Positions 1 to 46,040 of a stretch of DNA of 64,000 nucleotides are shown here, piece after piece. The notes under the pieces were generated by a model. That model was not told the origin of the DNA. It did not search any database and worked only from the letters and a program-made list of their open reading frames with translations. The stretch is from Yuukianura sp. NJ FZ-2021. Its lineage: Eukaryota. The stretch lies in NCBI GenBank assembly GCA_046563655.1, contig CM102290.1, forward strand, positions 5,890,001 to 5,954,000, written 5' to 3'. Position numbers and translations under genes: made by a program. The number at the start of each line of letters is the position of its first letter. Position 1 is the first letter of the stretch.

Positions 1-1141
1 ACAATTAACTAAGCAACTAATTAATCGTCTGAGCAATTGAGTTACCTAGCTGTTCCACAATGACCTCCACATCTGTGATACGCAGTTATCATCTACACAT
101 CCAACTTCTATTTTCAACGTAGTTACTTAAGTGTCACAAATAGTTACGGTTACTTGACAACACGATCCTGTTCCAACTCCGTTTCTAGTCAACCACAACC
201 ATCTTCACGATCTGTCCCTTTTTACAACAAAAAGAAGAAGAAGCTGAATTTTAGAATACTCCCAATATGCTCAACAACAATTTGGTCAAAAAGTAAAAAC
301 GTCAAGACGTGAGATCATCAACACAAAAGATTTGTAACGATTGACATTTTGACTTTGTGATGAACATGTGTTGAGTATTGGTCCTGCTACAGTTATGAAA
401 TGGATTAACTAAAGTTTGATGTGATTAAATGTTATATGTGAAATTGATTAAATGTTATGTTGATTGAATGCTACGTTGTGTTTTTGAGTTGAGGAAGATC
501 GGTTAGTGGTTTGAAAGTGGTTAGGGTAATTAGTTGTGCAATTAATTGAATGAGTGGCGAAGGAGAAACCACTGCCAGTAGTACTTGCCTCTTCGTGTGC
601 CGTCACTTCCGTGGGGTCACTTTGACAGAGTGGGGAAGTGGTTCTGGGTCAGGAGTTGCGCAGTGACACTTGGACCAAGTCCCCCCCTGGGGAAACCACT
701 CGCTGTCGCCTCCGTCTCATTACACCAATCAATCAGATGCTGCTCCAATATCATGCAATACTTGGTTAACCCAATTAAACGCTATTGCCCAACACCAGTT
801 GCCCAATATTTTATCAACGCATGTGCAATGGCAGCGATCTCCAAATGCCCTCACCATTTTGTCTTTGTTAAGCTTGGCTCATGCGTACTCATCTCGAGGT
901 CACCAGACTCATGGGGTCATGTCACATTTCTTAAAGTGTTTTGTAAAAAGAGGGAAAAGTGAAACTTTTGAAACGTGTGATTTTGCTTCCGTCTTTTTTC
1001 TTTGAGTGGGTGGGGAGATGCGTTGTGGCCAAAGTGGTTTGGGCAGTTTGACTCTCGTCCCACGTAGCCCCACATTGCTCAACGCCCCACCAGACATGTT
1101 GACAGAATGAGCCAAAAAGATGGTCAGGAGCTAAGTGGGGA

Positions 1142-1175
1142 TATAAAAAGGATTCTACAGGATCAGCATATCAGT
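1142..1175 (+). promoter_or_regulatory. TATA box plus arthropod-type initiator of the cuticular-type gene
   Basis: TATAAAA at 1142-1148 and TCAGT at 1171-1175 (~30 nt spacing), ~65 nt upstream of ATG 1240. Confidence 0.75.
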
Positions 1176-1239
1176 ACGACTCATTCTCTCATCACAAAAT
1201 CATCTTCACAGGTCACAGGTCAACTGTAAACAAGAAATC

Positions 1240-2590
1240 ATGTTCTCAAAGGTACTTTGGAGTCCATTTGGACACAAGGAGAAAGTGGACTCACTTCCGC
1301 AGTCGTGACAATTGGACACACACACTCAGGATCCGCTCAACTGACCAAAACTCACAGACCAAACTCAACTTTGACCTTTGACATTTTTGGATTTTGAATT
1401 TTCCCACTCATTTTGTTCTGGATTTTGTAGGTTGCAGTTCTGTTCGCCGTTTTGGCCGCTGCCCAAGCTGGAAACGAAGCCCCGCCCCCAAAAGTCCACA
1501 CTTACTCTGTCCCCAGTGTAGCCAAGGTCTCCTATCCAGGTAATACTATAATTAATTGTTAATTAAGATTAATTGTTAATTAACTTAACTTAATTGAAGG
1601 ACCCACCGTGACGAAGAGTGTGGAAACGTACTCTGCTCCATCCATTGAGAAGACGACCACCATCACCCGCACCATCACTGCACCACTCAACGCACCAGCC
1701 GGAAAACAAGTCGCCTACGCCGCACCAAGCCCACTCATCAAAGCAGCTCCAGCTCCAGCTGTCTACGCCGTACGTCCTACTTTTCAAAAAAGTTACACAA
1801 ATTCAAAAATGTTGCTTTTCAAAAAAAAAAATCGAAATTTTTTTGAATTATAATTTTCAGGCAGCGGCTCCCATTGCAGCTGCCCCACTCGGTTACGCTG
1901 CTGCACCAGCTCCACTGGCCTATGCTCAAGCACCAATCGCCTACGTAAGAATTCTTCACTCTTTTTCAACTTCCTTTTCAACAAAATCCTGAAAAAACTC
2001 TCGAAACAATTAGTTTGGCAATAATTTGCATTAATTGGAACAATCAATTACTCAACTAAATTGCGTCAACTAAAGTGCTGAATTGCACAACTAATTAATT
2101 GTGTGATTGTAATCAGGCCCAACCAGCTCTCGCTGCCGCTCCAGTAGCCTATGTAAGTCTAACAAAAGTCAATGATGTTTGAACGTTTTTGAACGTTTTG
2201 TGCCGAATCGAACGTTTTTGAAACGTTTTGTGTTCTAGGCTCCAGCTCCAGCTGCCTACGCCGTTAATGCAGGAGCCGTTTCCGCTCCAGGACTCGCCCT
2301 CAACTCGGCTCCACTCGGAAACAACTTCCAGAATCAGTTTGCTTCAATCTACGCTGCACCAAGTCTCGGATACGCCCTTGGACCACAATTCCTCGCTGCT
2401 GCTGCCCCTGCAGCCTACGCTGCCCCAGCCGTAAGCCAAGGCTACAACTACAATCACTGAACTGTCCAAGTACCTTTGGACTCCACTACTTCTAGCCTCA
2501 CTGACGTTACAACTCTTCACTCACCGCAACATTCTTGACTTTCAGGCTCCCGTAGCTGCAGTTCCCGCCGCTCCAGTCAAGGGCTACTAA
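1240..2590 (+). CDS. Secreted Ala/Pro/Tyr-rich low-complexity cuticular-type protein (multi-exon span)
   Basis: 4-codon first exon MFSK (1240-1251), GT-AG intron, then signal peptide VAVLFAVLAAAQAG (1431-). Further exons carry AAPA/AAPI/AYAAP repeats. Last exon 2546-2590 reads APVAAVPAAPVKGY*. AATAAA near 2790. No R&R chitin-binding consensus was seen. Confidence 0.8.
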
Positions 2591-3024
2591 ACACTCAGGT
2601 CCAGCATGGTTCAACCTCATTGTATCTCATACCTCTCACCTTTGACCTCCCTCTGTCCTCTCCTTCAAGTGTCCATGAGCGAGTAACTGGAAGAATGCAG
2701 GGAGGGGATGACCCCTTCAAGGGTCCCCTTCCTTCTAGTCCACACGAATAATTGACCTCTTTCTTTTCACTAATCACACTTTACAAAAGAAATAAATACG
2801 AATTTCATAAGCAAAACAAGGAAGTCATCCGTCAATTCATTATGTAAAAGCGGAAGTGGGTTATGATTGGTTGTAAATTTAATTGCTTCAATTAATTGGT
2901 TGTATGCGAAGTAATTGCGGAAGTAATTGTTATTTTAGGTGTAAATTGAAATTACTGGAATTCTCTGGAAAGTTGACAGTCGTAATTAAACTTACTTTTT
3001 AATACATTTTATGTAACTAGAAAG

Positions 3025-4927
3025 TTATGACTTCGTTGATGATCAACACCTTGTCATGGTACTCGCGGAGAAGATTGGTGGCATCTTCCATATCAGCGTT
3101 GTCCTCCCAGCAAGGCTGAAAAAATTAAACAAACATTGCAAGTTACTCACTTTAATGTTCCCAAACAAAGATCATTCACGTAAAGCTTTTGTCGCATTTG
3201 TATGCACAATTATATTGAAAAAAGAAATTGTTAAATTACCAGCTCATCGTGTGTAACAAAGGTGAGTCGCTGGAGTCGTTTGAGCCGTCCAGTGGCGGAA
3301 GCGTATACGGCATGGTACATGTCGGTAAAGCCAAAGATCAATTGAATTTCAAGCTCCTTCAGTTCTAAAATAATTAAGTTAAAACGCATAGTTGAAACTC
3401 ATGTTTGAATGGGTTACATATCTTTTAACTTACTACTAAGTTCTCCAATTTGATTTTCATCAATGCCAAAACCTTTTCCTTGGAAATCTCTGATACGCTG
3501 GAGCACATATTCTCGCCCGAGAAACTCATTTGTTTCATAGTCGCATGGTTCGCCAGTTAACACTTCCCATGGCCATCCCCTCAGCTTTAGGCTTTCCAAG
3601 TGAGGCAAATGTTTGAGCAGGGTGTTGAATGTATAAAAATCTGGATGGAACGATTTTGGCCCACTGTGATTTATAGCTAAATCCACAGTCAGCTTCTTGA
3701 CGTTTGGAAACAGGAAGTGAGCGTTGTTTGAAGTTATGTCCGTGACACTGGTCAAGCGGAGTTGGTGGACGGTGTAGAATGGGTTCGTGTCTAAATCAGG
3801 AACGTCGTCGTAGTTAGTACTATTTTGAAAGAACTTGAGTTTGGCCAAAGGGAAAGTTTGAATCCAATTCCAAATTGAAGCTTTGAGATCCACGTTGAGT
3901 ATGGGCGGGAGTGAAATAGCGAGGGCAACAATCCTGGGCTGTGGAGTTAATGTAACGAGTTCATTGAACACATCTTCAAATTTGTTTGTGATAACTCCGA
4001 GCCGAAGTTTGACTTTTGTTGAAGATGAGCGAAGGTGACTTAACATGTTTGGTAACTTTTGGAGTTCGGTTCTACGCATAATTTGTTCATGATAGTCTGA
4101 TCCTTCCTCAATGTTACGCAAGGCCAACGGATGAATGCCAGGGTAAATGTAGTGGACTTGGCAAAAGTATGGGTAGTAGTGTAGAGAAAGTACTTGGAGG
4201 TGAGGCGAGTGCTTGATGATGTCTTGAAACATAGCTGGCTCCGTAGAATCACGTCCCCAGTCATCATTTAGTGTAAACTTGACCTTGAACTTTCTTAAAT
4301 TTCCGAAAGCTTGAGCACAACTTGCGTCGGTTGTGGCGGGAAATGTGGTTCCGTAGCTAACCACTAGATACAAAGATGTTAAATTTGAAGTGGTAAAAAG
4401 CAGAGTTTGAATTGGACGTCCATAGTATCTTCCCCACGATCGACTTTTTAATTTCAAATCTTGAAGTCTGAAACTCCATTTCTTCTCTACCTCCGAGACG
4501 AAACTGATTTGAGTGATTGGTGTAGTTTTCAAGAAATCTTCAATTGTCTTTAGTTGAATGTCGTCGTCAACTCGAAAAGCAAACTTGGAAAATGGAACTT
4601 GTGATGCTGGAGTTGCGCGCATGAGCCACGAGAAGTACTTGATGTCATTGTTCGTTCGGAAGTGAATTGTCTTGTGACATTTGCTGAGCACAAGAAACAT
4701 TGATGGGTCGTCCCTCCAACTGCGGCAAACCAGGCGACAATTCAGAATGTCATTATTGGAAAGTAGCGACAGTATTTGGCCAAATACCTAAAACAGTACA
4801 ATATTTGACAAAAATTCTTATTTTTTAAGTCAAAAATCCACAACTTAACTTCTGTTGGTAGTGAATCCATATCACCATTTTGCTCAATTGCGTCTCCTGA
4901 AGCGGCTGAAGCCCAAATTTCCTCCAT
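3025..4927 (-). CDS. F-box protein with a Leu-rich (LRR/RNI-like) C-terminal region (multi-exon span)
   Basis: Splicing at ~4790-4849 gives MDSLPTEVFGQILSLLSNNDILNCRLVCRSW, a classic F-box. A ~1.3-kb exon follows (ORF 3414-4700) with LxxLxL motifs, then two small 3' exons ending at TAA 3025-3027. Confidence 0.8.
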
Positions 4928-4964
4928 TCTAACTTTCACTTTTGTCTGGACGCTGGTGGCGTAA

Positions 4965-6146
4965 ATCGCTGAGTTTCAATATTGCAAAAATATAGATGAT
5001 GAACGTAGAATGAAGACAGGATCCGTTTGCAAGTTCTGAAAACAATAGTTTAAAAAATCATCAACCTCCATGTCAACCTGACATTGTGAACGTCAATGTC
5101 CAATTAACGTAAAACCGAGATTCGAATAGCATAAGGAGTCTGACACTAATCATGACCAGTGTCACCCTCACCGTAATGAATGATGGTCCACCGAAAACTG
5201 AGGTTTTACCGAATCAGACTTACCGGCTGTCGTTGATTCAGTAGGAACACCGGATATGGAAGTGGAAGCGACGGAGACGAGTTGACCTCAGTTGACCTTT
5301 GCAGTCCTTCCAGTATCACAGATGACAGGATGAAAACAGACCACAAGAAAAGTGACAGATGACAGATAACAAGACAATTGGCACTTGCTGGACAATATTC
5401 CTGGGCTGAAGTAAGGTACACCGATAGTTATTGTAACCGCAGTGTAGCCATTTTGCCGTGGCAATTGGTCGTTACGCTATGTAGCATAGTTATGTTGCCA
5501 CTTTGGGCTATGTTTGACTAAGTTAAAGTGCTTCACATGTTGCCACTCAAGTGTTGCCACACGGGATGGGCAGAGTGGCTACATTTTGTGGCTACAACAA
5601 CTATTGTTGAGCCTTATCCCAACCAAATTCTGTGGCAACACAAAAACTTTCACTACAACTCTTCACCACTTCAACAGAGCTGGGCACATTTAAATAATTT
5701 ATTTACTTCAGCCCAGGAATTATTGTCCAGCAAGTGCCAATTGTTTTGTTATCTGTCACTTTTCTCATCTGTGATACTGGAAGGACTGCAAAGGTCAACT
5801 GAGGTCAACTCGTCTCCGTCGCTTCCACTTCCATATCCGGTGTTCCTACTGAATCAACGACAGCCGGTAAGTCTACACAAACATTCTAATTCGGTTATTC
5901 GGTAAAACCTCAGTTTTCGGTGGACCATCATTCATTACGGTGAGGGTGACACTGGTCATGATTAGTGTCAGACTCCATATGCTATTCGAATCTCGGTTTT
6001 ACGTTAATTGGACATTGACGTTCACAATGTCAGGTTGACATGGAGGTTGATGATTTTTTAAACTATTGTTTTCAGAACTTGGAAACGGATCCTGTCTTCA
6101 TTCTACGTTCATCATCTATATTTTTGCAATATTGAAACTCAGCGAT
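4965..6146. repeat. Long near-identical inverted repeat (arms 4965-5414 and 5703-6146, ~290-bp spacer) between divergent F-box and VPS13B genes
   Basis: The left arm ATCGCTGAGTTTCAATATTGC...CTGGGCTGAAGTAA is the reverse complement of the right arm TTACTTCAGCCCAGG...GCAATATTGAAACTCAGCGAT. They differ by a few substitutions and a few small indels (up to ~20 bp). The ORF track shows the same peptide (SSVILEGLQRSTEVNSSPSLPLPYPVF) on both strands. Confidence 0.95.
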
Positions 6147-6358
6147 AAAGAGAATCGACAAGTATTTATTTTTGAAACACTGTTATGAAAGTGGTAAGCA
6201 GTTAGTTAATACTTTTTTAATTATAATGTTTTGCTTATGTTGATTCACTTTCGAAACGTTTTCTTTTATTTGTCCGTTTAGCTTAATTAGTTGGAGTTAC
6301 AGGCAGTACTAAGTCTGCAACTTTGGAAAAAGCAACTTTGGCTACTTTGGAAAACATA

Positions 6359-9300
6359 ATGTTCAGCATAGAGTCGTATCTCACTCCATACATTGCGGCG
6401 TACCTTGGGAAATACGTCGACAACTTCAACAAGTCCAACTTCCAAGTGAGTTTTGGAAATTCATATTGGCTACATCCTATTTTGATGTTATGGATAAGAA
6501 TGTTAATTGTTGTTTTTGTTCCAGCTGTCACTATGGGAGGGAGAAGCAACTTTTCAAAACGTAGACTTGAATCTGGGTGCGATCGAGGCAGAGCTGGAGA
6601 TTCCTTTTCATGTGATCAGTGGACACATCCACGAAATGAAGATCAGTGTACCATGGACCAAAATCACTTCAGAACCCATCGTCGTCACCATCAATACCTT
6701 CGGTTAGTTTCATCATCAAGCTAACGAATGTCAGAGAAACTAATTTGGTCTTCTTTTGACAGAACTTTCGATGGGATTGAAGCGGAAACGACCAGGCGAA
6801 GAGGAAACGAAAGTGAACAAGTAAACGCGAATTAGTTGAAACGACCAAAATGTTTGAAATGTGACACTATTTTGTACTTAGGTCTCCCATTGAACCGAGT
6901 CTTCCTCCAGACACAACGGGGTACATGCAAGGTCTCATGAACAGAATCATCCAGAATGCCAAAGTGGTCTGTCGGAATGTGATCCTCAAGTACATTGAAG
7001 AAGATATTGTGATTAGCTTTAATTTTGAAAATGTCACCCTCTGCTCAGTCAATTCCTGCTGGGAACAGGCTTTCGTCGGTAAGTTTCATATAAAAAAAGA
7101 AGAGAAAAGAAATTCATTAGGCCTTATTCAATTTTGTTCCATTTCCAGATTTTGGAGGAACTGACTTTATCGTTCGTCGTAAACTTAGATGTCCGGATCT
7201 GACAGTGTGCCTTGACAACGTCCATTCGGTGTCCAGACACAGTTATATGGTAAGTAACTCTTGATCATTTAATCAGCATGTTAAATGTTATGTTAAGTGT
7301 GTCCTTTGTTTCAGGAACCTCTGCTCTACAAATGTGCCTTTGACGTTAGGATTTTGAATCAATTCCAAGGACCCTTCTCCAGAACTCCGTTTTTTAGACG
7401 AATCGACATTCTGTTCAATGAAGCAGACGTTTCTGTCAGTGAACAGCAGGTACAACCACAAACTACTTTTGATCACTTTTCATTTGATTTCATACTTCTG
7501 ATCAGCTGACTGACATTTGTTGTCATGACAGATTCCGATGCTGATTCGCCTGTACAATCTCCTCATTGCGCTGACACAACTCAAAGGTCCACAATCTGAT
7601 TTGGTCACGACTGAGCCTCGTCAGGGTGGCGGTGACATACTTATAGACGACAAGGAAGAAGAGAAATGTGAGACTGAAACGAAAGCGGAAGAAGAACCAT
7701 TACCATGTACACCACCACCAGGTAAATTTTCATGAAAAAGTTTAAATTGGTGTTGGATTAAAATGTAGGACTGACTAATCCTCGGAATCCTCGGATATTG
7801 TTTGTTTAGAATGTAGTATGGAATTGGTCTGCGTTGAAGAGGAAATGTCTTCTCCACTGTATGACTGGGCTGCTTGGGCCGTGGGGTGGATCCCACTTGG
7901 TGGTTTCGTGGCCAGTGACGAACCGCCTCCAGAACCCTTGACCCCAACTCCACAAATTCAGCCGATTCTGGCTCTCGGTCTCTATGTCAACGCTGCTCAC
8001 TGTACGCTCAAGAAGTCAGAACAACAAAGATTCTCCGACAGAGCAAGCACATCAAGCAGCACTCCCAGCTCAAGAATCAAGGCCAAACCTTATCTCAAAA
8101 TCCATATTCAGGGGATCGTCGCAGACATTTCTGTCCAGGGACCAGCGAGGAGTGTGCGAGGCGGCTTTTGCGAGGTAATTTACTAACTAACTTGCTAATT
8201 AGTTAAAGTTAAAGACTTTAAGGTAAAGTACTTGTGACTTGATTTTAGGTGAGAGTTGATGGAGTGGGTGTTTGTCCTTGTGGTGTGGACGACGGAGGTG
8301 ATGAGAGATCCAGTTCTCCTCTTCCCTCTGCTGGAATTCCCTACTCAGTCATGGGCCGAAAGCGAGATGACTTCCTCACTGGAACTCTCTTTGACCCTGA
8401 CACGGATCCTGCTTATGACGCCTTTGACTGTCGGTTTCATTGCAAGGGCTATGAAGATAGATATTCGGGTAAACTTTTCATTCCTTTCTACTAAAAAACG
8501 AGTTTTTAGTAACTTTCAACATGATGTTAACACTCTGTTTTGTTTTTTGTAGAGGATTCAATGCTGATTCGTACTCCAGCTATTGCTCTCGACTCGGTTG
8601 AAATTCTTCCAACGTCGTCATCCCCAGATGAATGCTGTGAAGGTGGACCAGAAGATACTGGAGTTCTGCCTACTCCTGCAGACTCTAACTTCCGTATTGC
8701 ATTGTGAGTTGTCTGAAAAAGTAACTAAGTTTAGATTTTATTTAGATTTTTGTCAAGATTTACTAAATTATTGATGAAGTTGTTTGTTTTAAAAGTGAGA
8801 AAGAAGGACCGAAAACTTCTACGCGTGTTGTTTTTTCTCCTCTGAGCATCAGAGTATCAACTGGTCTAGTTCATCGTTTCAAAGTCATTCAAAAGGCATT
8901 GGAGGCCTATAACTACATTCCATATGTCAACCTACTCCCTCTGTGTAAGTGGAATTTCAAACAGAAGTTACTCGATTATTTCATTTTTAATCGATTATTG
9001 ACTTTTATTCATTGTTTAATTCCAGACATACCCGAACTCCGATTGTTCATGAAGTTACGAGTGGATAGACTGGAACTTGTTTTCTGTGACAGTGAAAGCA
9101 GTCTACTCAGTGAAACTAACAACGAAATGAGACTTACACTCTTTGGAATCAAAACGAATTTGGATGTAAAGGAATTCTACCGCAAGAAATATTTCCAGCT
9201 CCGAGGACTCGATCTCCAGAGTTACCAAAAGTAAACTTGAAACACTAAACTTCGGAATGTTTGACTTTCAGAATTTCACAATTTCAGAATTTTGTTTTGG

Positions 9301-12300: not shown

Positions 12301-15300
12301 GAGAGGAGAAGACAATTACTTGGCGATATCCGCATCCACGCTCCATCCAAGCCATCCTCACCCACCCTCTACCCCTCAATAGAGCACCAACTCAATCCAC
12401 CGTAACTGACAAACTTATTTTTACTCAAATCTAATTTTTACACAAAATTATAACCAAAATATGCTGATTTTAGGAGGTGGAATGCAGTTTGAATTGCTGG
12501 AGTGAAGCGGATTCGGGGTTTGTGTTCGTGGGATCCTTTGTCATTCACGATTGTATTGCAGAGGAGGTCGTTTTTGGGGAAGAGGAAGGCAATGAACATG
12601 TTTCCAGCCTCTGGAGAGTCACTCTACTCACACCCATGGAAGAGTCAGTTTATTAATTAATAATAATTAATATAAATTAATTAATTAAAGTAATTCATCA
12701 GGGAGGATTTACAAAGAACGATGAGGCCGGATGGAGTGGTGGCTTCGTTGTACATCAAGTCGTCGTTTGCGAGACACAAAGTTCCTAAACTTCATTTCAT
12801 CGCCCGCATTCCATCAACTACGATTCACTTCATCAATCATCGGACTTATGCCGGCAAGAGTGAGTCTATATTTTTTAGTTAAAACTTAAATCTGAGGTTA
12901 AACAACTTGATTGCAAGTTTTTATTTTGTTTAGTTCCTGAGGAGCGGCTTGGAATGTATTCGATTGAGGGTCTTCAAACTCAAATGGACCAACCATTTGC
13001 AACAATCCACTTTTCTCATGTCATCGCTACAGCGTCTATGTGGATTCAGAGAGCTCGAGCCGAGTTGAAAGCTACTACGCATGTCACTGTCACAGATTAT
13101 GAGTATCTAACAGACATGACAGTCGTCGAACCTTTCCTCACTCGCGTAAGTTTTAGACAATTCACATGTTGAATTTCAAATTTCGAATTTTCATAACTTT
13201 GAAATTGTCTAAATTTTGAACTTTGGTGGATTTGTTTAGGCAACGTACAATTTATTAGAAGAGACTTCCATCAAAGTCCACGAAGGATTCGGCATCATGT
13301 TTGAAAAACTTTGTATCAAGGTTGGTTCTTCGGCTTTGCACACAATAACGACCTCAACATTATGCTGGATCCAAGTACTCAAAGCCTACTATGGAGATGT
13401 AGTGGACACTTCAAGGGCCCACTTCCAGTAAGTCACAAAGTTTTAACATTTAACTTATTTAAACTAATATTATATCATATTAATTAATATAATATAATTT
13501 AATGTTTGCAGACCGTCGATCTCAATGGCTCGAATTATGATTGCCAACGACACGGCATTCCACTTGAACCTCAAACAAGTCCTGACCAAGAAACCGCTGC
13601 TCATTCCCTCTGGCAGTGCTTATGCCTTTGGTTGGACCACGCAAAAGGTCAAACCAGAACTGACGTTGGCTCTGACCGAAGAACCTACCAAAGAAACGGC
13701 TCCTTTTTCCCTCAGACGACCAGAAACACTGGCGAGACAACTCGGAGACTCACACCTCTTCATCACCTCCAAATATCTCCATCCAGCACAACTTCTAGTC
13801 ACAGTGGGTGGGTCATTGGATGTCGCCAATGGACTGGATGTCGCCGTAGAAGTGGGACTGTTGGGAAAACGCATGAGTCAAGAACGATGTTGGAGAGTGG
13901 AGAGTGGGTGTCATGGTCCATCCCTCCTCCTGCCAGCACACGAAGTGGCTGGAATAAGATTCAGACTCACGAATGTCAATGGAAGACAACATGGGTGGTC
14001 ACACAGTGTGACACTGGAGGAATTGGGGTCACTTCCTCAGCAGTCCAGAGTGGTGACACTTTACGAAGAAAGAGAAGGAGTGCTGGTGGATTTGAATATT
14101 TGGTGTTCATTGGTCGAAGAAGGACTGGACGGCGGGCGACGTTGTCTGCTCCTGCTCTTGCCACTTTTTAGGCTTGCCTCGTTTCTGCCTACTCCAACAA
14201 CGGCGACCATCGCTGAACCAGGAAACGCTTCTCGAACTTCAGTCGTTTTGCCTGGCAGAGGATCTAAAGCAGAAGTGGATTTCCGAGGTCAAGCCACTGC
14301 AGCCCATCTTCTAACATTCCAGTCTGAGTGAGTCAAGCTGAATTTCCAATTTTTGAAACTGAAATTTCGAAATTTGAAAACTAATTGTTGATTTTGTTGT
14401 TGCTGCAGTGCATTTTCTGAAGCATCTACTCCGATTCCACTTGTAGCTGGCGGCGGTCCTTGTTTGGAAACACCTCCTCCCAAACCACCGATTGACTCTA
14501 TTCTGGACGATCTACTGCGACGTGACATCGGAGACTTGAAGAGACCGTGGCCATTCACCCGGGAGAATATGGATGGAACCGACTGGGCAGAAGGACCTCG
14601 TTCAGATGGACCAGTCAAAGTGAGCTTCAAACCGTGGATTCCAGGATTCCCGTCGGTCGTTGTCCAAGTCAAACCAGCAGCAATGCTCGTCAATCTCACT
14701 GGTCAGACGCTGCTATTTCGACAAGAGGGCGACGATTTGTCTATTTCGAACAAAACTGTCTTTTCTCCGAACAACATTCATGGGAAATTTGCATTTGGAT
14801 TTAACCTGAATCTACTTGGGGGATCTGGAGTCGTTTGGTCAGAAGAATTAGAGATGAGTGACCATCCTGGTCCGGCGCAAATCCATCATGTCAATTCCGA
14901 CTGGAAAATTCCAGTTAACTGTCTGAGTCGACTGGAGCTGAATGGACACAAAATGCAAGTTCATGTGACAATTGAAGTAACAGTTTTCGAAGGAATCACT
15001 CTCGTTGTTCTCCGTCCAACATTCAACATTCAGAACAAAACGCCATTTACACTTTCTGTTTCTGGATTATCTCTACAAGGAGACGGAAAGAAGGTGGAGA
15101 AGATGATTGGACCAATGGACAAAACTTACCAGCCAATCGATGGCCAAGATGCTGGAAATACTGGAGATCCTGGAAGTGCTTATCCACTTCTACTGTTCAA
15201 TTGTGACTGGAATCCTAAAGAAAGGAATATCTACACGAGTGGAGTCAAGTACTTGGCCCTTAAGTACTCCGAAAGTCCAGCATGGCTCATTCGCCTCATC

Positions 15301-18300
15301 AAGTTTGAGCAAATTTTTGACAACATTTCTGCTCCACAAGGAATTCCGGTCAATCAGCTGACCACGGCCATTCCAACTGTACAGCCACACTGGATCCAAG
15401 GAAAACCGAGAGAAACTGTGGAAGTTGCCATGCCAATTTCTGTTTCCTGGACATCAAAAGATGGACAAGTTTGGATTTCAATTCAATTGGACTCCAGTCC
15501 CCAAGTTGTTCTGGTCAACGAATCCAACATTCCACTGTGCTTTTTGGATCCTGAGAGTTTAAGTCGCGGACACTACCAAAACTACTGGCAACTTCCAATT
15601 TTGAGTCCATTTGCCACTTCGTTCTACACTTTTCGTCAAAACACTTTCCCAGAAGTACAAACTATTCAAGCTGAACTCCATTTTGGACTGTTTCCACTTC
15701 CGGAAAAGAATTTCCGACTGACGACTATGCTGCATGACCTCAAAAGAATCGATTGGTCACCGCCGGTCAAATGTGAAGATTCAGAAGAAGTACAACTGTT
15801 ACTGCTTGGAACTGAACCATCAAAAGTATACTTGAAAGTACTGACAGAAAAACTGGGTCCTGTATACTACATTGTTGTTGAGGAATTGTCAGATGCAGAA
15901 GTGTCGGCAAGAGATGTCAGATCAAGAATCCAAGAAGAGTTGACACAATGTTCACAAACTACTGTTGTCATGGAAAACGAAGTTTCGACATCGACGTTTG
16001 CCAGTTCTCTACAAACGATTTTCCGGAACAGTCAAATTTTCAATGATGGATTCGGTCTGGTTCTGAGTGAAGATGAATTGGCAGCATCAATTGTCAAGTC
16101 CACTTTTGCTCTGGATGTTGCGAGGTCATCGGTATCCAAATCAGAGATTGAAACTGATGTGGGAACAGCCAAAAATCCATTTGTGGAACTACGGATTCAT
16201 TTGCCTCAAATTCGGTTGATTCTGACGAATGATCTGAGTGGACTGGGCATAAGACGTGAAATTTTGAGCCTAACGTTGAATGATCTCTTTTTTGAAAAAC
16301 GTTCAAAACATGGCGAGAGACGACTGCGCGTTTTAGGCAACAAGCCGTCTGAATCTTGGCTCCTTCGTGTCTTGCTGGGTGATTTTCAAGTAGACAATGC
16401 TTTATCGCAAGAAAAAAGATGCGATTTTCCAGTGATTTTGCAGCGGGAAGAGATTTATGAATCAACTGGAGTTCCTTGTCTGTTTGAAACTCCGAAGGAC
16501 TTTGACTGTTGCGTAGACGAAACGTTTTTGAGTCGTGGTGCTCTACTGGAAGTGGGCGGAGAGTTTCTCATAACAAAACCAGAAGGACTGCCACATCTCC
16601 AGTCACTCGAGGTCAAATGTCAACCTGTACGGCTCAACCTGGAGGAAAAGTTTTTAGTCAACATTGTTCCACTTACTTTTGAAGTTGCTGCTGTCGTGAG
16701 AGAAAGACTACCACTTCTTCAAACACAAACTCAAATTTTGCAAGCACAAAGTATGTCTCAACTTAATTTTGGAATTTTGAGAAATTTTGATTTTAATTTG
16801 TTTAATTTCTGGATTAATTGCAGGACTGGAACGCCATTCGAGGGAAAGTTTGCAATTTATTATGCTGCCACTAACAAGAAAAAATACGGAACTGCTGGAA
16901 TCGAAATTTCAAACTTCGGAGGTATCTGTGGCAGCATCAGCGTCAGGAACAGCGACAGTAGAGTTGGTGGGAGCAAGACGCTTAAGTTGGAGCGGTCCCA
17001 GCACGCCTATTGAGTCTCCTGGATTGAGGTCACCCAGTTCAGAAGATGTGAGGTCACTTGTAGCTGTTCCCATGGAAACGGATTTGGGAGTGGGTCCACT
17101 TTATGGCGACATTGGAAAAGACTATGTCCAAAGTATCATCGACGGAGACCAAAATGCAAGTGACTTGACATCACCACAAGAAGAAGGAGTGAACATGGAA
17201 GTCCTTTCTGGAAAACTGCTAGGAGCGATGGAACGTTCTAAAACTGTGACAATTCCTGACGAAGTTCGTTGGATCTTGGAAGATGTTTGTCAACCAATCC
17301 AACTTCAGCGTCTGCATGTCCATCAGGTCCAGACGTACTTGACCTTTCGCGGAACCTACGCTGGTCTCTACTTTGCATTTGACAATTCACCAATTCTGCT
17401 CAACGAATACGTCGCCCACCAACTGCTGACGACCAGATTCAACCTTGGACAAACTCTCGGTGGACACTTTCTGCTTGGAGCGATTTACCGAGCAGGAAAC
17501 CCGATGAGAATGCTGGCTTCACTGGAACTGATTGGGAGTCCAGGGTCCCTTGCAAGGACCCTTGGAACGGGAGTGAAGGACTTTGTGGTGTATCCCTTGA
17601 GGGGCGTGAGGGAAGGGCCCTTGGCCTTTGTGGCTGGACTCAACAGCGGATCTTCGTCACTCTTGCGCAATTTCACGGCTGGTAACAGAACAGAATTTTA
17701 AAAATGAACAATTTTAAACATGAACATTTTATTAAAAAGTTAGAATTGAATTTGTTCGGGGGTTTGAAGTTTTGCCTTTTTTTGCTTAGGTACTTTGACC
17801 TCGGTGACGAACTTGGCTTGGAGTGTGTCCAGGAACCTGGATCGCTGGACACTGGATGAGCTGGAGGAAGAAATGGCAGAGGACAGCAGACGCATACCGA
17901 TCGATGGGATTTCCGATGGACTTGTTCATGGCCTCAGTGCATTTGGCATACGACTTCTAGGTTCGTTTTACTTATATAAATTATAATGATAAATATAAAT
18001 TATAAAATATATCTAAAAATATAAATTATAATTTTTAGTGATAAAATGTAACTTTGTATAAAAGTTAAATTTTTGTGTGTGGTAGGTGCGATCGGTGGAG
18101 TTCTTCATCATCCTCTGCAGGCAGCGATTGATGATGGAGCTTCTCCTTTCAAGATTGCAAAGGGACTGGGGAAGGGCCTTATCGGAGTAGTGACGAAACC
18201 GGTTGGAGCTACTGTTGAATTGGTTGCCATGACAGGACAAGGGATCCTCCAGGAGGCTGGATGGGCTCAAAAATTTACAGTAAAAACAAAAATATTGGCA

Positions 18301-20060: not shown

Positions 20061-23499
<3,439 letters not shown>

Positions 23500-25899
23500 T
23501 ATAAAGATCAACAATTAAGCTCCCTCAAGTGTCCAAAGTCAATGGTCCTCCTGAAACCAGAACAGCATGACTCAATATTCATAGAATCCAAAACTATCAC
23601 GCAAAACAGAACTCTTTACAAGTATTCCATTCCTAGAAAAGGAGCGAATAAAACTGATTTTGTTTAGAAATACGGACAGAGTTCAGAGTCCTTTTTGACC
23701 GAAAAGGACAAACACAAAATGTTTTGTTGACTTTAAAATTTAAATTTTATGTGGAAAGCGTGCAGAACAATGGACGGTAAAAGTAACTAAAGACTTCTAA
23801 AGTAAAACTAAACACTTCTACATAAATGCAAAGTTTTTTTTTGGTACAGGAAAGTTGCCCCGGTCATGCCAACTCTAAAAACCGTGACCTTTGGAAAAGT
23901 AACGGGATTCCAGAAAAGATGTGTGTTGCTCTACTTATGCAGAAGAACATGTTTGTGTATTCAAGGCTTTCACTTGTCTCACCTGTTGAATCTCAACGAA
24001 TGGAATGAATGAATTAGAGGCACCTTGGAGGACGGAACGCACCCAGCACTTGATCTAGCCGTGGTGGCAGTTGACCTCTGACCTAAGGCAAGTTAAATAA
24101 TAAGTAATTAACATAATTAACTAATAACTATGAAGTTATTAGCAGTGTTTTACGTTGGAGGTAGGAGAGAAGATGGACGTTGTCGTGCCGGTGGAGATGA
24201 CTTGATAACTAACCTGTTGAGTGGATTGGTAAAAAGAGCTTTTTAGTTCCTGAGTACTCTAAATCCCGTTTGGGCTATCCGTGACCAATTCCAGGGCGTG
24301 AGCCGAGTCTCTTGCTGTAGCTGTGGTGATTGAAGGAGGAAAAGTGAGTAAGGTTTTAGTACTATCAACTTCTGTTTCTGACAGCCAACCCATGCCAATT
24401 CCGGCCAGCACTCGTATATCATCACTATTTTTCAATGGAAAGGATCCAGTTAACATTAACAGAGAGGCATTCACCCCTTCACAATCCCCTTGCTTGTAGT
24501 ACTCCAACCAATGTTGTCAATTGTCCTCGGAAACCATAAATTTCGGTTAAACTTACCCATATTCAAACTCCAAAGTCACAACTTTTCACTTCTGATACAA
24601 ATAGTTCGGTCCACGGTCCAGTTAGTGTCAATGTCCAACTGCAAAAACAGGACATTAACTCAAATTCCACCATCAACCTTTCCATACTTCCTCGCTTAGC
24701 TGGAATGGAATTCCAAAAATTGCGATTTCAAAATTTCAAATGTTTACAATTTTGAAAATCCCGCTTTTGTCCATTTGAATTCTAAAAGAGCGATAGACAA
24801 TTTGAAACTCCCGCTTTTGTCCATTTGAAATGTAGGAGCAATAGGGATTACAAAATAAACAAGAGGATTAAAAATGGACGAGGCGTTGGCTACTTGGCAT
24901 TTTTCAATTCCATGTTTACATTGACATGTTTACTGATTTGTTATCCGAGTGTACCAAGCGTAGGACACTTCCTTGATAATCCACTTACAAATTGGTAAAA
25001 AGTGTAACGTTTACAGAGCGGAGGCGCAGTTTTGTTATTATTGTTCATAAAAGATTTCCAAAACAGTTTTATCTTTCCCAATCTCATCTCCACATTTGGC
25101 ACTCAGACATCAAACGTATCCCGTGATCCTCCACATTTGTGGAAATACGAAAGGTCAAAGGTTGCCATCTGCCGAATCATATACACACAGGGTAATAAAG
25201 CGTAATTCTAGTTTAGTTATCGAAAACTAATTAGAGAGAATCCTAACATAAATTTCTTTGTCCAGTTATGTAATTGCATCGTAAATTAGTTGGAGTCTGG
25301 CTAAATGTTGGATATCGGACTTCTCGGATTTCTCAGATTTGTAGGAGGGTCGCACACTGTCAAACCGCGGACTCTCTAATATGCAACAGATTAACTTAGT
25401 AGGTATGGTAAACCCCTTAATACAAATCATCTAATAAACTTTGAATGGGTTTGGTGAAACTCTTACCAAACCATTTAAATATAGCTTCAAATCGGCATAG
25501 TTTGAGCAACTGATTTTAAGGAGTCTGGAAAATTAAGGAGTCTGGCATGACAGTCTGCACCCCTCCCTCATACAAATCGGAGGATTCCGAAATCCGACGT
25601 TTAGCCGGACCCTGTGGTTGCGGCTGAGCATAAAGAGCCTCCTCCCTGGGCCAAGACTAAAAGTCTGAAGTGCTGTCTGAAGTGCCTGTAACTTTGTCCA
25701 GAAACTCCAGAACTGACTGGAAACCACAAAAACAATTCTCCCACCTCCTTCTCACTCGATCCCACCACTGGGAAATGCTGGGAAGTCACTGGGGAAAAAA
25801 CTACCCCTTTAGCTGTCTGAAGTTGCTGTCTGAAGTGGACCCACTATTCCGCTGATTCGTCAGAAATCGCGATCGCATTGGTTAAAATTTTCGCTAGTA

Positions 25900-27733
25900 G
25901 GAATGTGCGAAATACCAGGAAATGACAAAACTGAGTTCCCAGCATCTTGTTCATCATTTCCCAACACTGGGAAATGGTGGGAAGTGTCTGGGGAAAAAAC
26001 TACCTCTTTATTTTGGGGGTGGAAGGAAGTCTGAAGTGGGAATAACTTTGGCTAGAAAGGTGGGAAATGCTGGAAAACAATAAAACTGAGTTCCCAGCAT
26101 CTAGCTCATTACTTCCCACTACTGGGAAATGGTGGGAAGTGACTAGGAAAGAAACTACCTCTTTATTTTGGGGGTGGGAGGAAAACTCTGAAGTTGGAAT
26201 AACTTTGGCTAGGAAGGTGGGAAATGCTGGGAAATGACAAAACTGAGTTCCCAGCATTTAGTTCATCAGTTCCCACTACTGGGAAATGGTGGGAAGTGAC
26301 TAGGGGAGAAACTACCTCCTTATTGTGGGGGTGGGAGGAAAACTCTGAAGTAGGAATAACTTTGGCTAGGAACGTGGGAAATGCTGGGAAATCACAAAAC
26401 TGAGTTCCCAGCATCTAGCTCATTACTTCCCACTACTGGGAAATGGTGGGAAGTGACTAGGAAAGAAACTACCTCTTTATTTTGGGGGTGGGAGGAAAAC
26501 TCTGAAGTAGGAACAACTTTGGCTAGGAACGTGGGAAATGCTGGGAAATCACAAAACTGAGTTCCCAGCATCTAGTTCATTACTTCCCACTACTGGGAAA
26601 TGGTGGGAAGTGACTAGGGGACAAACTACCTCCTTATTGTGGGGGGTGGGGGCAAAACTCTGAAGTTGGAGTAACTCTGGCTAAGGAAGTGGGAAATGCT
26701 GGAAAACAATAAAACTGAGTTACCAGCATCTAGCTCATTACTTACCACTACTGGGAAATGGTGGGAAGTGACTAGGAAAGAAACTACCTCTTTATTTTGG
26801 GGGTGGGAGGAAAACTCTGAAGTAGGAATAACTTTGGCCAGGGAAGTGGGAAATGCTGGGAAATCACAAAACTGAGTTCCCAGCATCTAGCTCATTACTT
26901 CCCACTACTGGGAAATGGTGGGAAGTGACTAGGAAAGAAACTACCTCTTTATTTTGGGGGTGGGAGGAAAACTCTGAAGTAGGAATAACTTTGGCTAGGA
27001 ACGTGGGAAATGCTGGGAAATCACAAAACTGAGTTCCCAGCATCTAGTTCATTACTTCCCACTACTGGAAAATGGTGGGAAGTGACTAGGGGACAAACTA
27101 CCTCCTTATTGTGGGGGGTGGGGGCAAAACAGAAGTTGGAGTAACTCTGGCTAAGGAAGTGGGAAATGCTGGAAAACAATAAAACTGAGTTACCAGCGTT
27201 TAGCTCATTACTTACCACTACTGGGAAATGCTGGGAAGTGACTAGGAAAGAAACTACCTCTTTATTTTGGGGGTGGGAGGAAAACTCTGAAGTTGGAATA
27301 ACTTTGGCTAGGAAGGTGGGAAATGCTGGGAAATGACAAAACTGAGTTCCCAGCATTTAGTTCATCAGTTCCCACTACTGGGAAATGGTGGGAAGTGACT
27401 AGGAAAGAAACTACCTCTTTATTTTGGGGGTGGGAGGAAAACTCTGAAGTAGGAATAACTTTGGCTAGGAAGGTGTGAAATGCTGGGAAATGACAAAACT
27501 GAGTTCCCAGCATCTAGTTCATCAGTTCCCACTACTGGGAAATGGTGGGAAGTGACTAGGAAAGAAACTACCTCTTTATTTTGGGGGTGGGAGGAAAACT
27601 CTGAAGTAGGAATAACTGTAGCTAGGAAGGTGGGAAATGCTGGAAAATCATAAAACTGAGTTCCCAGCATCTAGCTCATTAGTTCCCACTACTGGGAAAT
27701 GGTGGGAAGTGACTAGGAAAGAAACTACCTCTT
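25900..27733. repeat. 157-bp satellite array, ~11.5 copies (left arm)
   Basis: The anchor CTACCTC recurs every ~157 bp from ~26000 to ~27725. The unit is rich in GGGAAATGCTGGGAA, TTCCCAGCAT and GGGGGTGGGAGG. Confidence 0.95.
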
Positions 27734-27839
27734 CAGTGGCGGTTTCGGTGCTTACTACATAGAAGACCAAAAGGGCCATTCGCAACTTTCGATTTCCGAC
27801 TCGGAAATTTTGAGTGAAATTTGACTTGTACTGTTTTCC

Positions 27840-28090: not shown

Positions 28091-30709
28091 CTTCATTGGA
28101 AGAGTCTTCGCGAAGACACTACATCACTGAGTGCGAAATAAACGATGGCGTTGAAGAAACCAGGAATTAAAAAATTATGTAATCCGACTACATTGTTTCC
28201 TTGTTAACTTACTTAAGCAGAACCTTGTTTCTTCATCACCACACAATCTTGTTAGTTCACCTTGCAGAACTTACTTTGCTCATTTCAGATAAACACATTA
28301 GGATATTAACACAAAATACCATCCCTTTAGCTATCATTACCGTATTTTCTGGCAGATAACCTTTGGACTTTCTGTGAAATTTTAATTTGGGATGAGCGAA
28401 TTTTTGGTCTGCAAAACCTCATCATCACATAACCTCATTATTTTACTCGCGTAAAACCATATTTTTTGTTAAAAAACATCATCCTCCACATGCATGATCG
28501 GGGTTCACGCAGACACGTTCACTCTTTTTAGTAGTTAGTTGGAGCACTAACTGCAAAAAGAGTGCGTATTCTCAAGTCGAAAATTCAAATCACATAAAGA
28601 TTCAAACGTGCCTACTGTTTACTGGATTAGTTTCAATTTGAGGTTTTAAAACTTCTCAAGCTCCACATTTTTATTTCCAATTTATCAAAAATTTTTGATC
28701 TAAACTATTACACAATTTGTTTCCACAACACCTCCACGCACTTTGGGATTAACATCAAAACGTTGCCACAAACATGTCATGTTTCGGTGGGCTCTATTTA
28801 AGTGTTAATACCAGACGTGTGAAAAGAAAGATAAATCTTTTTGGGGACTTCTTTGTCTTTAATAAGTTTTAAAGTCTTTAAAAATTTTAAAAAACTCTTT
28901 TTGCTATAAAACCTTTTTCCGCTCTTTTTTTAACGAAAATCAGGTAAAAACAGGAAAGAGTCAAAAAATGCAATTTTAGCAGAAATTTCCACGATTTTTT
29001 GTTAGTCTTTCAGAATTGGGCGAAAATTTTAATTTCAAAACGGTGGGGTGAAAATTTAGTCAAAATTTTATAACATGTCTCATATTAACATCATCTTTGA
29101 TATGCATTAGATATTCAGTGACGGTTCGTCCAGTGAATATCTAGTGGATAATATATTTCATCCGGTTTTATCCGGAAGAATTGGCTGGATAAAATGGATA
29201 TAAGTAGATACTTCCACTTATTTTGATGTAAGTGGAAGAAATACTTTATCCATCTAGCAAAAATGGTGTTTAGGAACAAAAGTTACGCTTAGTTTAACTA
29301 TTTTTCCAATAACACATACAAATCTTTTATTGTATTTGGTTGATTCTAGGATTTTTACGTTTTCAGAGTTGCTTTTCTAGCCATTTTTAAGAACATTTTT
29401 AGAACTTATTTGAGCAATTCTTTAAGGATTTTTAAGATTTTAAAATAAGGATTTTTGGAATTTTCTTTTCACAGGTCTGTTTATTACAAAATCTAAACAA
29501 CAGAGCACGTTCAGCTACACAAATTATACTTGGACATTTTCAATGTAACGTTAGGTATTCGCTTCCAAAGACTTACGTACACCAGTCCATCTTAATTAAT
29601 GTTCGTCTAAAAATGCTCCGGATGCTTAAACACTTGAATATGAAAGTTTACTTTATGCTCATGGAAAAATTGATGGGAGACATTTTTTGTCGAACCGCCT
29701 CTTCTTCATTTGAAGAAGCCCCTCTTATCTCAGGTGAATTTTCAGTAATTCAATTACACAACAAAATTTGGATGTCAGTTCAGTTACTAAGAAACTAATT
29801 ACCTCCAACAGTAAGTGTCGGGAAATGTATAAACTAAACGACTAAACCTAGAAATGGCAAAATCTTCTCATTTAATCTAACAACTAGGTCTAAAAATAAT
29901 TTTATCCTTGACAAAGACATGTTCTCATTGAGTCATATGTATAGAAATAGAAGATAAATGAATGTGTGATTATTTTAAGGATTTGTGGTATTACTAAAAT
30001 GATTTGACCTTCAGAACTTCTGAAAGAATTCTGGGACTACAGTAAGCATTTTCGCATTTGTAGACAAATTCGGAGTTTTGAAAATTGAGAATTTGCAGAT
30101 AATCTTGCAAATGCATATCTCTTCTAAATTATAAGGAAAAATTCGAATTTAAATTACAAACTATAATCAAATGTGTTTCACTCATCACCAAAATTAACTA
30201 ATTATTTGAAACTCATGCAGAAACAATATTTCCTTTGTTTTTGCACGGTATTTTGAATTTTTTAGGTTTTTTGTATCTAATTAATTCAAACGCCGCAAAC
30301 AAAGCTCCGTCCCTTTGAATTCATCCATTTCTTTCGCTGGGTTATTAGCCGTGGACAAAATGTCGAGCTAGCTGGAGAAGGACGTTGTTTAGCATTACAA
30401 TAAAATTTTATAACACACCAGAACCAACAAAATTTAATTGAGGTGAATTACGGTATACGGTGTTTCGCAAGTGCTTGAAAAATATGGCAACAATAAATAA
30501 AATATTTTAGTAAATATATTGCCCGTTTTTAGAATCTATTAAAAATATATTTTGCCAGATTTTAGTAAATATTTTTCTCATACATGATACTAAACGAGAA
30601 AGTCGCATTTCTTTAAATTCGAAATCATTGTTTCTATGCGCGTGGCCCTTTCACGCTTCCGAAAAGTAGAAACCAAGTTTTTCAGCCAACAGTAAACAGG
30701 TAGTTTCTG

Positions 30710-31850
30710 CCCGTGTGACTTCCCACCATTTCCCAGTAGTAGGAACTCATAGACTAGTTACTGGGAACTCTGTTTTATTATTTCCCAGCATTTTCCACTT
30801 CCCTAACCCAAGTTATTACAACTTGAGACAGTATAAAAGTATCCCCTCACCCTCCCAATAAAGAGGTAGTTTTTTCCCCAGAGACTTCCCACCATTTCCC
30901 AGTAGTGGGAAGTAATGAGCTAGATGCTGTTAACTCAGTTTTATTGTTTTCCAGCATTTCCCACTTCCTTAGCCAGAGTTACTCCAACTTCAGAGTTTTG
31001 CCCCCACCCCCACAATAAGGAGGTAGTTTCTCCCCTAGTCACTTCCCAGCATTTCCCAGTAGTGAGAAGTAATGAGCTAGATGCTGGGAACTCATTTTTG
31101 TGATTTAAGAGCATTTCCCACCTTCCTAGCCAAAGTTATTCCAACTTCAGACTTTTCCTCCCACCCCCAAAATAAAGAGGTAGTTTCTCCCCTAGTCACT
31201 TCCCACCATTTCCCAGTAGTGGGAACTAATGAAGCAGATGCTGGGAACTCATTTTTGTCATTTCCCAGCATTTCCCACTTCTCTGGCTAAAGTTATTACA
31301 ACTTCAGACAGTAAAAAAGTATCCCCTCACCCTACCAATAAAGAGGCAGTTTTTTCCCAAGAGACTTCTCACCATTTCCCAGTAGTGGGAAGTAATGAGC
31401 TAGATGCTGGGAACTAATTTTTGTGATTTCCCAGCATTTCCCACCTTTCTAGCCAAAGTTATTCCAACTTCAGAGTTTTGCCCCCACCCCCCACAATAAG
31501 GAGGTAGTTTCTCCCCTAGTCACTTCCCACCATTTCCCAGTAGTGGGAAGTAATGAGCTGGATGCTGGGAACTCAGTTTTGTGATTTAAGAGCATTTCCC
31601 ACCTTCCTAGCCAAAGTTATTCCAACTTCAGACAGTAAAAAAGTATCCCCTCACCCTCCCAATAAAGAGGTAGTTTTTTCCCCAGAAACTTCCCACCATT
31701 TCCCAGTAGTGGGAACTGATGGCCTAGGTGCTGGCAACTCAGATTTATTACTTCCCAGCATTTCCCACTTCCCTAGCCAAAGTTATTTCAACTTCAGACA
31801 GTAAAAAAGTATCCCCCCACCCTCCACGATAAAGGGGTAGTTTTTTCCCC
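30710..31850. repeat. 157/166-bp satellite array, ~7 copies, inverted relative to the left arm (right arm)
   Basis: GAGGTAG-like anchors at ~30863, 31020, 31177, 31343, 31501, 31667 and 31833. The unit is the reverse complement of the left-arm unit. The 166-bp variants carry GACAGTAAAAAAGTATCCCCTCACCC. Confidence 0.93.

Positions 31851-38126: not shown

Positions 38127-46040
<7,914 letters not shown>

Follow-up and report, generated by a model that had tools for sequence, protein, structure and literature searches.

Young gene duplicates need a promoter and a workable 5′ untranslated region (5′UTR), and the known routes to these are a neighbour's bidirectional promoter and the partial duplication of 5′ exons. 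The DNA considered here, a 64,000-nt stretch of contig CM102290.1 of Yuukianura sp. NJ FZ-2021 (the window, in which all coordinates are counted from its first letter), contains at 4965–6146 a palindrome of about 1.2 kb. It separates an F-box gene on the minus strand from a VPS13-family gene on the plus strand, the two being divergently oriented. We propose that this palindrome is a lineage-specific, mirror-symmetric module of divergent promoter and leader, and that the leader was most likely copied from the VPS13-family gene to the F-box gene. Start sites, splicing, direction of donation and age are all deduced in this proposal, to which we would give roughly even chances.

The closest documented case is the duplication of the BRCA1/NBR1 bidirectional promoter in catarrhines. 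According to the preprint, this gave the pairs BRCA1-NBR2 and BRCA1P1-NBR1, whose partner transcripts have 5′ ends highly similar to those of the parents (bioRxiv 10.1101/2025.11.08.687349). There, as proposed here, a duplicated 5′ module with first exons and introns leads to look-alike 5′ ends. The BRCA1/NBR1 duplication is tandem, extends over ~4.4 kb and yields a long non-coding RNA and a pseudogene. In contrast, the copy described here is inverted, is ~0.45 kb long, contains non-coding leader only and precedes an intact, unrelated protein-coding gene, with one putative promoter centre shared by both sides. In the titles and abstract openings of the literature searched, we found no described inverted duplication giving two unrelated genes the same leader.

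Genomic palindromes whose arms undergo gene conversion with each other are known, for example, from primate sex chromosomes, where they measure kilobases to megabases and hold whole genes in both arms. The present locus shares with them the inverted arms, at least 99% identical, around a unique spacer, and here too the identity may reflect conversion rather than youth. It differs in its size of 1.2 kb and in arms that hold leader only, which would feed two different genes. Head-to-head bidirectional promoters offer a further comparison, together with the core-promoter motif TGGYAACR. This is the DMv2 motif (Ohler 8), which, in the portion of the paper that deals with it, is strand-directional and clusters near the transcription start site (TSS; ~100 bp) in Drosophila (PMC1779564). 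In extracts of a second paper, a DMv2-like motif was recovered by MEME in NSL-bound Drosophila promoter regions and NSL-bound promoters were enriched for Ohler motif 8 too, while the title of that paper ties NSL to housekeeping genes (PMC3375229). Our locus is like such promoters in that its genes diverge and that four of the seven motif copies between them match TGGYAACR exactly, on the sense strand of the gene they face. It is unlike them in its seven-copy mirror array, in the three copies that are TGGCTACA variants, in TSSs that are putative, and in a host that is not Drosophila. Taken together, the locus combines known kinds of element, namely an inverted segmental duplication, a bidirectional promoter and the capture of a 5′ leader.

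A repeat search of the window returned three collinear inverted-repeat blocks at this place, of 250 nt (99% complementary), 110 nt (100%) and 38 nt (97%), which blastn merges into one (E 5e-161). Global alignment puts the limits of the arms at 4965–5414 (arm L, 450 nt) and 5703–6146 (arm R, 444 nt), with a centre of 288 nt between them (5415–5702), and 419 of the 422 aligned columns are identical. The arms differ by three substitutions (at positions 5029, 5134 and 5373 of arm L) and three indels: 21 nt more in arm R directly 3′ of the donor, 28 nt more in arm L (21+7), a surplus that falls in the putative first exon, and 1 nt more in arm R. Beyond the outer ends, the likeness of the flanks is not significant (60 of 1000 shuffles reach the score), and no further arm copy was found within the window, sensitive blastn included. 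With two inverted copies, high identity and sharp ends, 4965–6146 is a genuine inverted segmental duplication with two arms. The initial annotation of this DNA had described two near-identical arms of ~450 bp, which agrees with the alignment, and its placing of the F-box ATG at 4927 (−) and the VPS13 ATG at 6359 (+) holds as well. The F-box ATG lies 37 nt past the end of arm L, and the two ATGs are 1432 nt apart; in the head-to-head class, it is the start sites that lie less than ~1 kb apart. The features are as follows.

3414–4927 (−): F-box gene; exon 1 at 4927–4850, intron at 4849–4788 (62 nt), exon 2 at 4787–3417 and then the stop codon; from the list of open reading frames (ORFs), translation and Pfam
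4928–4964 (−): unique 37-nt stretch from the outer end of arm L to the F-box ATG, with no minus-strand ATG
4965–5414 (−): arm L of the palindrome, 450 nt; putative leader exon 1 (~5450 to 5224), putative intron 5223–5036 (188 nt) and the start of the exon that would contain the F-box ATG (5035–4965), as predicted from sequence
5415–5702 (no strand): diverged centre, 288 nt, a putative bidirectional core promoter with an array of TGGCWACA, four copies minus and three plus
5703–6146 (+): arm R, 444 nt; putative exon 1 of the VPS13 leader (up to 5866), putative intron 5867–6075 (209 nt) and 71 nt at the start of putative leader exon 2, predicted likewise
6147–6358 (+): unique rest of the putative VPS13 leader; remainder of exon 2 to 6193 (one upstream ATG at 6185), putative intron 2 at 6194–6281 and leader part of exon 3 at 6282–6358, all predicted
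6359–6698 (+): first two coding exons of the VPS13-family gene, 6359–6445 and 6525–6698; from Pfam, the Protein Data Bank (PDB) and collinearity with a related locus, L001

The splice signals of the arms stand at the coordinates first reported for them. The donor, CAGCCG/GTAAGT, has the G of its GTAAGT at 5867 (+) and the mirror G at 5223 (−), and the acceptor, TTTTCAG, ends at 6075 (+) and at 5036 (−). All six differences between the arms leave donor, acceptor and pyrimidine tract untouched. The distribution of ATGs follows the same boundaries. The plus strand is free of ATG over 5567–5957 (392 nt, the fourth longest such run on that strand; on both strands of the window, 29 of the 1,954 runs reach at least 300 nt), the next five ATGs (5958–6050) are all inside the putative intron 5867–6075, and the portion of exon 2 that belongs to the arm contains none. 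The minus strand lacks ATGs between 5450 and 5154, has five within 5223–5036 and then no other before the F-box ATG at 4927. In all, the putative intron accounts for ten of the ten arm ATGs. Among 12,215 control segments of 444 nt, taken from the window outside the region, 127 contain GTAAGT followed by TTTCAG 50–400 nt later, and not one has this pair together with ATG-free flanks. Since the arms are copies of each other, the signature counts as one observation and not as two. In terms of sequence, it is a convincing signature of an exon–intron–exon spliced leader in the arm, and both genes probably begin with the same spliced untranslated leader. The spliced leader claimed initially keeps its sequence signature, with ATGs confined to the intron and no equal among the controls; splicing itself, the start sites and the shared regulation that had been claimed along with it are putative.

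Because five intron ATGs precede it, the F-box AUG would come first in its mRNA only on splicing of the mirrored intron or with a TSS downstream of 5061. The second condition leads to an alternative in which the F-box-side copy is not used as a spliced leader at all, the TSS being downstream of 5061 or elsewhere and the mirrored intron being promoter or spacer DNA; the similarity between the 5′ ends would then be of no consequence. A TSS within 5060–4928 would indeed make the F-box AUG first equally well, and the left side has nothing to match the TATA-like TTTAAATA at 5687. However, the donor, acceptor and pyrimidine tract of arm L are intact, with none of the six differences located there, and the minus-strand motifs at 5443–5559 would lie ~400–600 nt from such a TSS, whereas DMv2 in Drosophila clusters near it. 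We consider this alternative rather unlikely; if it were correct, the palindrome would be merely a small local inverted duplication in intergenic DNA.

The motif array is found in the centre. The window has 13 occurrences of TGGCWACA, where 3.5 would be expected over 64 kb, and seven of the 13 are within 5443–5640. The left half holds four of these, all on the minus strand (5443, 5493, 5538 and 5552), and the right half three, all on the plus strand (5576, 5589 and 5633); the exact TGGYAACR matches are those at 5493, 5538 and 5552 (−) and at 5633 (+). Three pairs are mirrored about 5567 within 1 nt, with spacings of 37/36, 6/5 and 7/7 nt, and this axis is within 9 nt of the axis of the arms, 5558.5. 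The strand order together with at least three mirrored pairs was obtained in 39 of 200,000 simulated trials. Since the array sits in the diverged centre, the arms would duplicate mainly transcribed leader and not promoter. The simplest reading of this arrangement is a bidirectional core promoter in the centre, flanked by arms that consist mostly of transcribed leader; the initial annotation had placed a duplicated promoter within the arm, a view that we abandon, as the promoter-like array lies outside the near-identical arms. The centre also contains an off-axis inverted match, 5423–5457 with 5569–5605 (~36 columns, roughly 80% complementary), whose score is reached by 17 of 500 shuffles and which is carried by the GTAGCCAC motif copies.

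We propose that the centre serves as a shared bidirectional core promoter, each half of which would direct three or four sense-oriented TGGCWACA copies towards its own gene. Transcription would start near the inner ends of the arms, at ~5400–5450 on the minus strand and ~5640–5730 on the plus strand. The arms would then be transcribed as leader, each providing a non-coding exon of ~170–220 nt, an intron of 188 or 209 nt and 71 nt at the start of the following exon, and two unrelated mRNAs would open with an almost identical spliced 5′UTR. On the F-box side, removal of the mirrored intron would delete five upstream AUGs, by which the F-box AUG would become the first. If this is true, the locus represents a compact third route to a promoter and 5′UTR, in which a 0.45-kb inverted copy of a spliced leader, placed across a symmetric promoter, makes an unrelated AUG the first one. 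It would provide a clear-cut instance, in nature, of a leader captured through palindrome formation and, in addition, a convenient test of arm-to-arm conversion in palindromes of such small size.

The presence of the palindrome in reads was followed in four of five listed DNA runs, of which X1, X2 and X3 are from one sample, possibly the source of the assembly, and X5 is separate and the only independent study. Contigs from the reads were matched to the window at 85% likeness or more, and the depth of a bin is the sum over all matched contigs. A contig covering 5296–5794 (499 nt) is present in all four runs with 0–1 other letters; it spans the 28-nt stretch peculiar to arm L, the entire centre and 92 nt of arm R. 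In X5, a further contig, 5765–6216, has no other letters. Since X5 holds the centre-crossing contig, reads from an independent study contain the head-to-head arrangement. In all four runs, the centre bins have just the depth of the single spanning contig, and bins of the arm interior likewise have the depth of one contig (5070–5236 in X1; 5905–6071 in X2, X3 and X5). The zero depth at 5905–6071 in X1 and at 5070–5236 in X2 and X3 is uninformative, as the collapsed arm contig was there assigned to the other arm. Among the contig pieces listed, beyond which there are 450 more, none bridges the outer-left junction at 4935–4965. The k-mer depth of the centre contig is below that of the flanks in X1–X3.

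With its long terminal inverted repeats around a short centre, the palindrome has the shape of a foldback element or miniature inverted-repeat transposable element (MITE), and chimeric reads can also produce palindromes in an assembly. Yet the locus differs from foldback elements in consisting of two arms only, without arm subrepeats. No third copy at least 85% alike was found in any of the four runs and none other in the window, which is the arm copy number of two that had been expected at first. There is no target-site duplication either, the flanks (...GGCGTAA and AAAGAGA...) sharing at most 2 nt (AA). In 4700–6500, no Rfam family (E ≤1) and no tRNA gene was found, and Pfam gave nothing with E <0.04 on five ORFs of the arms and centre. 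The initial annotation had likewise seen no target-site duplication or transposon-like ends, and had named an artefactual arm as fatal to its interpretation; the contig that crosses the centre into both arms, in X5 as well, disposes of that objection. On these grounds we rejected a foldback or MITE-type transposon, for want of dispersed copies in the four runs and the window and of a target-site duplication, and an assembly artefact, given the centre-spanning contig of the independent study; an origin of either kind is extremely improbable.

Long inverted duplications have yet another possible use. In the hairpin-RNA (hpRNA) loci of arthropods, which give rise to endogenous small interfering RNAs, one transcript spans both arms. 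The palindrome resembles these loci as an inverted duplication of part of a gene, and the 1182-nt stretch folds as a single long hairpin (minimum free energy −876 kcal/mol), so that a transcript of both arms could form a duplex of ~450 bp to be diced against both leaders. In contrast to these loci, the promoter signals here point outward from the centre and not across it, and each transcript would hold one arm. We regard an hpRNA locus as very improbable.

A more serious alternative concerns the age of the palindrome. The whole 5′ module, with its promoter half, might have been duplicated long ago, the centre having diverged save for selected motifs and their spacing, and the arms being kept 99% alike through conversion. 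The module would then be common to the two genes without any recent donation. Such an old palindrome is consistent with the mirroring of three motif pairs so close to the arm axis, and with arm differences that cluster toward the centre. The two halves of the centre also align better than expected (z 3.3; 1 of 1000 shuffles reaches the score). Once the motifs are deleted, however, the halves are no better than shuffles (z 0.9; 410 of 2000 reach the score), and because the likeness vanishes in this way, common descent of the halves is not demonstrated. The contigs of two runs also bear on this question. In X2, a contig of the 5765–8400 region joins the unique right flank to an arm with arm-L states at four of the four distinguishing places, and in X3 another contig has mixed arm-L and arm-R states. 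These may be real variants of arm-to-arm conversion, as an old palindrome would allow, or may come from bubble-popping or other graph artefacts of collapsed arms. Overall, we find an old palindrome unlikely but deserving of attention.

The F-box gene has an intact reading frame for a product of ~483 aa, its second exon comprising 457 codons. Residues 4–26 of that exon score above the Pfam gathering scores of two entries, F-box-like PF12937 (26.8 bits, cut-off 24.3) and F-box PF00646 (24.9 bits, cut-off 20.5), and the nearest clusters in the Atlas are F-box families, which we take only as a lead. A homologue search with the F-box ORF gave no match at E 1e-3 or better among 4,983 candidates, which probably reflects database content rather than novelty. 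Many contigs 85–95% alike match the coding region, 3400–4900, in all runs. In X1, 154 of the 197 matched contigs are less than 95% alike (80 at 90–95%, 74 below 90%), and 37 of the 40 variant places shown, out of a list that has 164 further ones, are within the F-box gene (3771–4831). Since the diverged contigs pile up on the coding region only, the F-box gene is one member of a large, young paralogue family and the palindrome is not itself a repeat family; the membership in an expanding family proposed at the outset is borne out. Because some paralogue contigs skip 4791–4907 or 4790–4875, the first exon or intron is built differently in these paralogues. In one paralogue contig, a joint has a 30-nt side that begins at 4908, which suggests that the family likeness extends ~10 nt beyond the ATG on its upstream side. 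An expansion of F-box genes has been reported for Collembola (PMC10087712), and a table for Daphnia includes an F-box/LRR class (PMC4860698).

On the other side of the palindrome, the exon at 6525–6698 matches Pfam VPS13_N (PF12624, E 2.3e-15) with 55.9 bits, below the whole-protein cut-off of 80 bits because a single exon of 66 aa was scanned. The N-termini of VPS13A, VPS13C and VPS13 in the PDB match at E 9e-6 to 8e-5. Farther downstream, the ORF at 14392–17013 (873 aa) finds VPS13_VAB clusters in the Atlas, again a lead only, and had no match in a PDB search. A homologue search with a VPS13 ORF over 5,059 longer candidates likewise gave nothing with E ≤1e-3, probably again owing to database content and not to novelty. 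Judged by its sequence matches, the plus-strand gene belongs to the VPS13 family; it may be the B paralogue, the label given in the initial annotation.

Related loci were obtained by scanning metagenome contigs with the peptide of VPS13 exon 2, which gave six loci from three taxa (L001; L002–L005, which are one taxon; and L006). L001, the nearest of these, has 93% aa identity on exon 2 and a G+C content of 0.406, equal to that of the window, and is collinear with the window from the VPS13 ATG onward. Upstream of VPS13 and on the same strand, at 1,640–2,890 (+), L001 has an O-methyltransferase gene (PF01596, E 1.7e-13); because of this gene, synteny breaks right at the 5′ end of VPS13. The upstream region of L001 contains no F-box gene, no inverted repeat >27 nt and no TGGCWACA or TGGYAACR, and its likeness to the centre, arm R and leader is not significant. 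In L002–L005 and L006, too, there is no long inverted repeat and no F-box gene, so that neither occurs at the VPS13 locus in any of the three related taxa. By these comparisons, the module of palindrome, F-box gene and motif array is lineage-specific. Since L001 has an acceptor 22 nt before the VPS13 ATG, the 5′UTR intron is probably an old feature of the VPS13 gene. In the scenario first advanced, relatives were expected to lack the palindrome, as they do, and to retain a single arm copy at VPS13, of which nothing was detected upstream of VPS13 in L001; a conserved VPS13B promoter as the source of the leader is not borne out, the nearest relative found sharing nothing upstream of the ATG and lacking the motif array. 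That scenario as a whole is partly supported.

As to the history of the module, we suppose that an inverted copy of the VPS13 leader was set before the F-box coding unit, arm L having been placed there by template switching through microhomology. At its outer edge (4965), arm L is at most 27 nt from the traceable limit of the F-box family likeness, as judged from the joint at 4908, while the outer edge of arm R falls inside putative VPS13 exon 2, where there is no landmark. In addition, a 4-nt direct repeat, GTAA, at 4961–4964 and 5411–5414 brackets arm L, against only 2 nt for arm R. Because of the edge at the F-box family limit and the GTAA bracket, arm L is favoured as the derived copy, although these are weak hints from the sequence. 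No arm-like contigs at least 85% alike accompany the F-box paralogues in the four runs, and no leftover inverted VPS13 exons were found left of the F-box gene by blastn or tblastx. Taken at face value, a difference of 3 substitutions over 422 columns would make the copy very young; under conversion, the number carries no date.

Donation in the reverse direction would have the leader and promoter arrive with the F-box insertion, an inverted copy then giving VPS13 a new 5′ end after a rearrangement had taken away the original one. The break in synteny directly upstream of the VPS13 ATG, with the O-methyltransferase gene at that place in L001, would suit such a course, as would the missing motif array upstream of VPS13 in the three related taxa. 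Nevertheless, the F-box paralogues are without arm-like contigs, it is arm L that the longer direct repeat brackets, and the palindrome's outer edge falls together with that of the F-box unit and with no feature on the VPS13 side. We judge reverse donation to be quite improbable.

Several points weigh against our proposal that a VPS13 leader was copied to the F-box gene by way of a divergent promoter. The motif array upstream of VPS13 is found in none of the three related taxa and is not ancestral to VPS13; the entire upstream region may be new. The upstream region of L001 has no detectable likeness to the arm (Smith–Waterman score 16 versus 13.1 ± 1.4 for shuffles, 18 of 300 of which reach it). 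The relatives are also distant, their coding DNA being 75–83% identical to that of the window, and for this reason they cannot tell which arm is ancestral. Three of the seven motif copies are TGGCTACA and do not fit TGGYAACR, a motif whose role is known from Drosophila and whose consensus is that of another species than the host. The GTAA repeat has an estimated probability of ~1–2% of arising by chance over the four junction configurations examined, and leaders of F-box paralogues less than 85% alike would escape the contig matching. Finally, the mirror symmetry of the centre points to a duplication that originally took in the promoter halves, with arms kept alike by gene conversion, which would make it not recent.

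It is tempting to extend the proposal of a copied leader and shared promoter further. Both mRNAs would carry the same spliced leader of ~250 nt under one mirror promoter, ongoing conversion would tie the F-box copy permanently to the control of transcription and translation of VPS13, a lipid-transfer gene, and occasional read-through of the palindrome would yield small RNAs from the 450-bp hairpin that act back on the two leaders. Members of expanding gene families could then, in general, obtain ready-made spliced leaders through small palindromes. This extended version, taken as a whole, is improbable, and we advance it as speculation.

Elsewhere in the window, Pfam searches with nine large ORFs matched only PLU-1 and PRMT_C. 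The match to PRMT_C, the oligomerisation subdomain of arginine methyltransferases (E 6.8e-6, 26.6 bits, just below the cut-off of 27 bits), is from an ORF at 60,205–61,008 (−), and the PLU-1 (KDM5-like) ORF at 43,133–43,603 is overlapped at its start by an 11-bp minisatellite (AAACGTTACTN-like, ~12 units) at 42,999–43,194. At 1,584–2,600 (+), there are alanine/proline-rich ORFs with AAPAPA..Y motifs, reminiscent of arthropod cuticle proteins; Pfam assigned no family to the alanine/proline-rich ORFs at 582–3256. A 100-N assembly gap at 22,083–22,182 adjoins a tandem repeat of three 131-bp units (21,521–21,968). Lastly, a tandem array of a ~157-bp unit (10–13 copies, mostly 76–90% alike and a few 62–64%) and its inverted counterpart occupy 25,700–27,750 and 30,680–31,990; the two sides, ~3 kb apart and 85–91% complementary, look like a foldback-like satellite pair.

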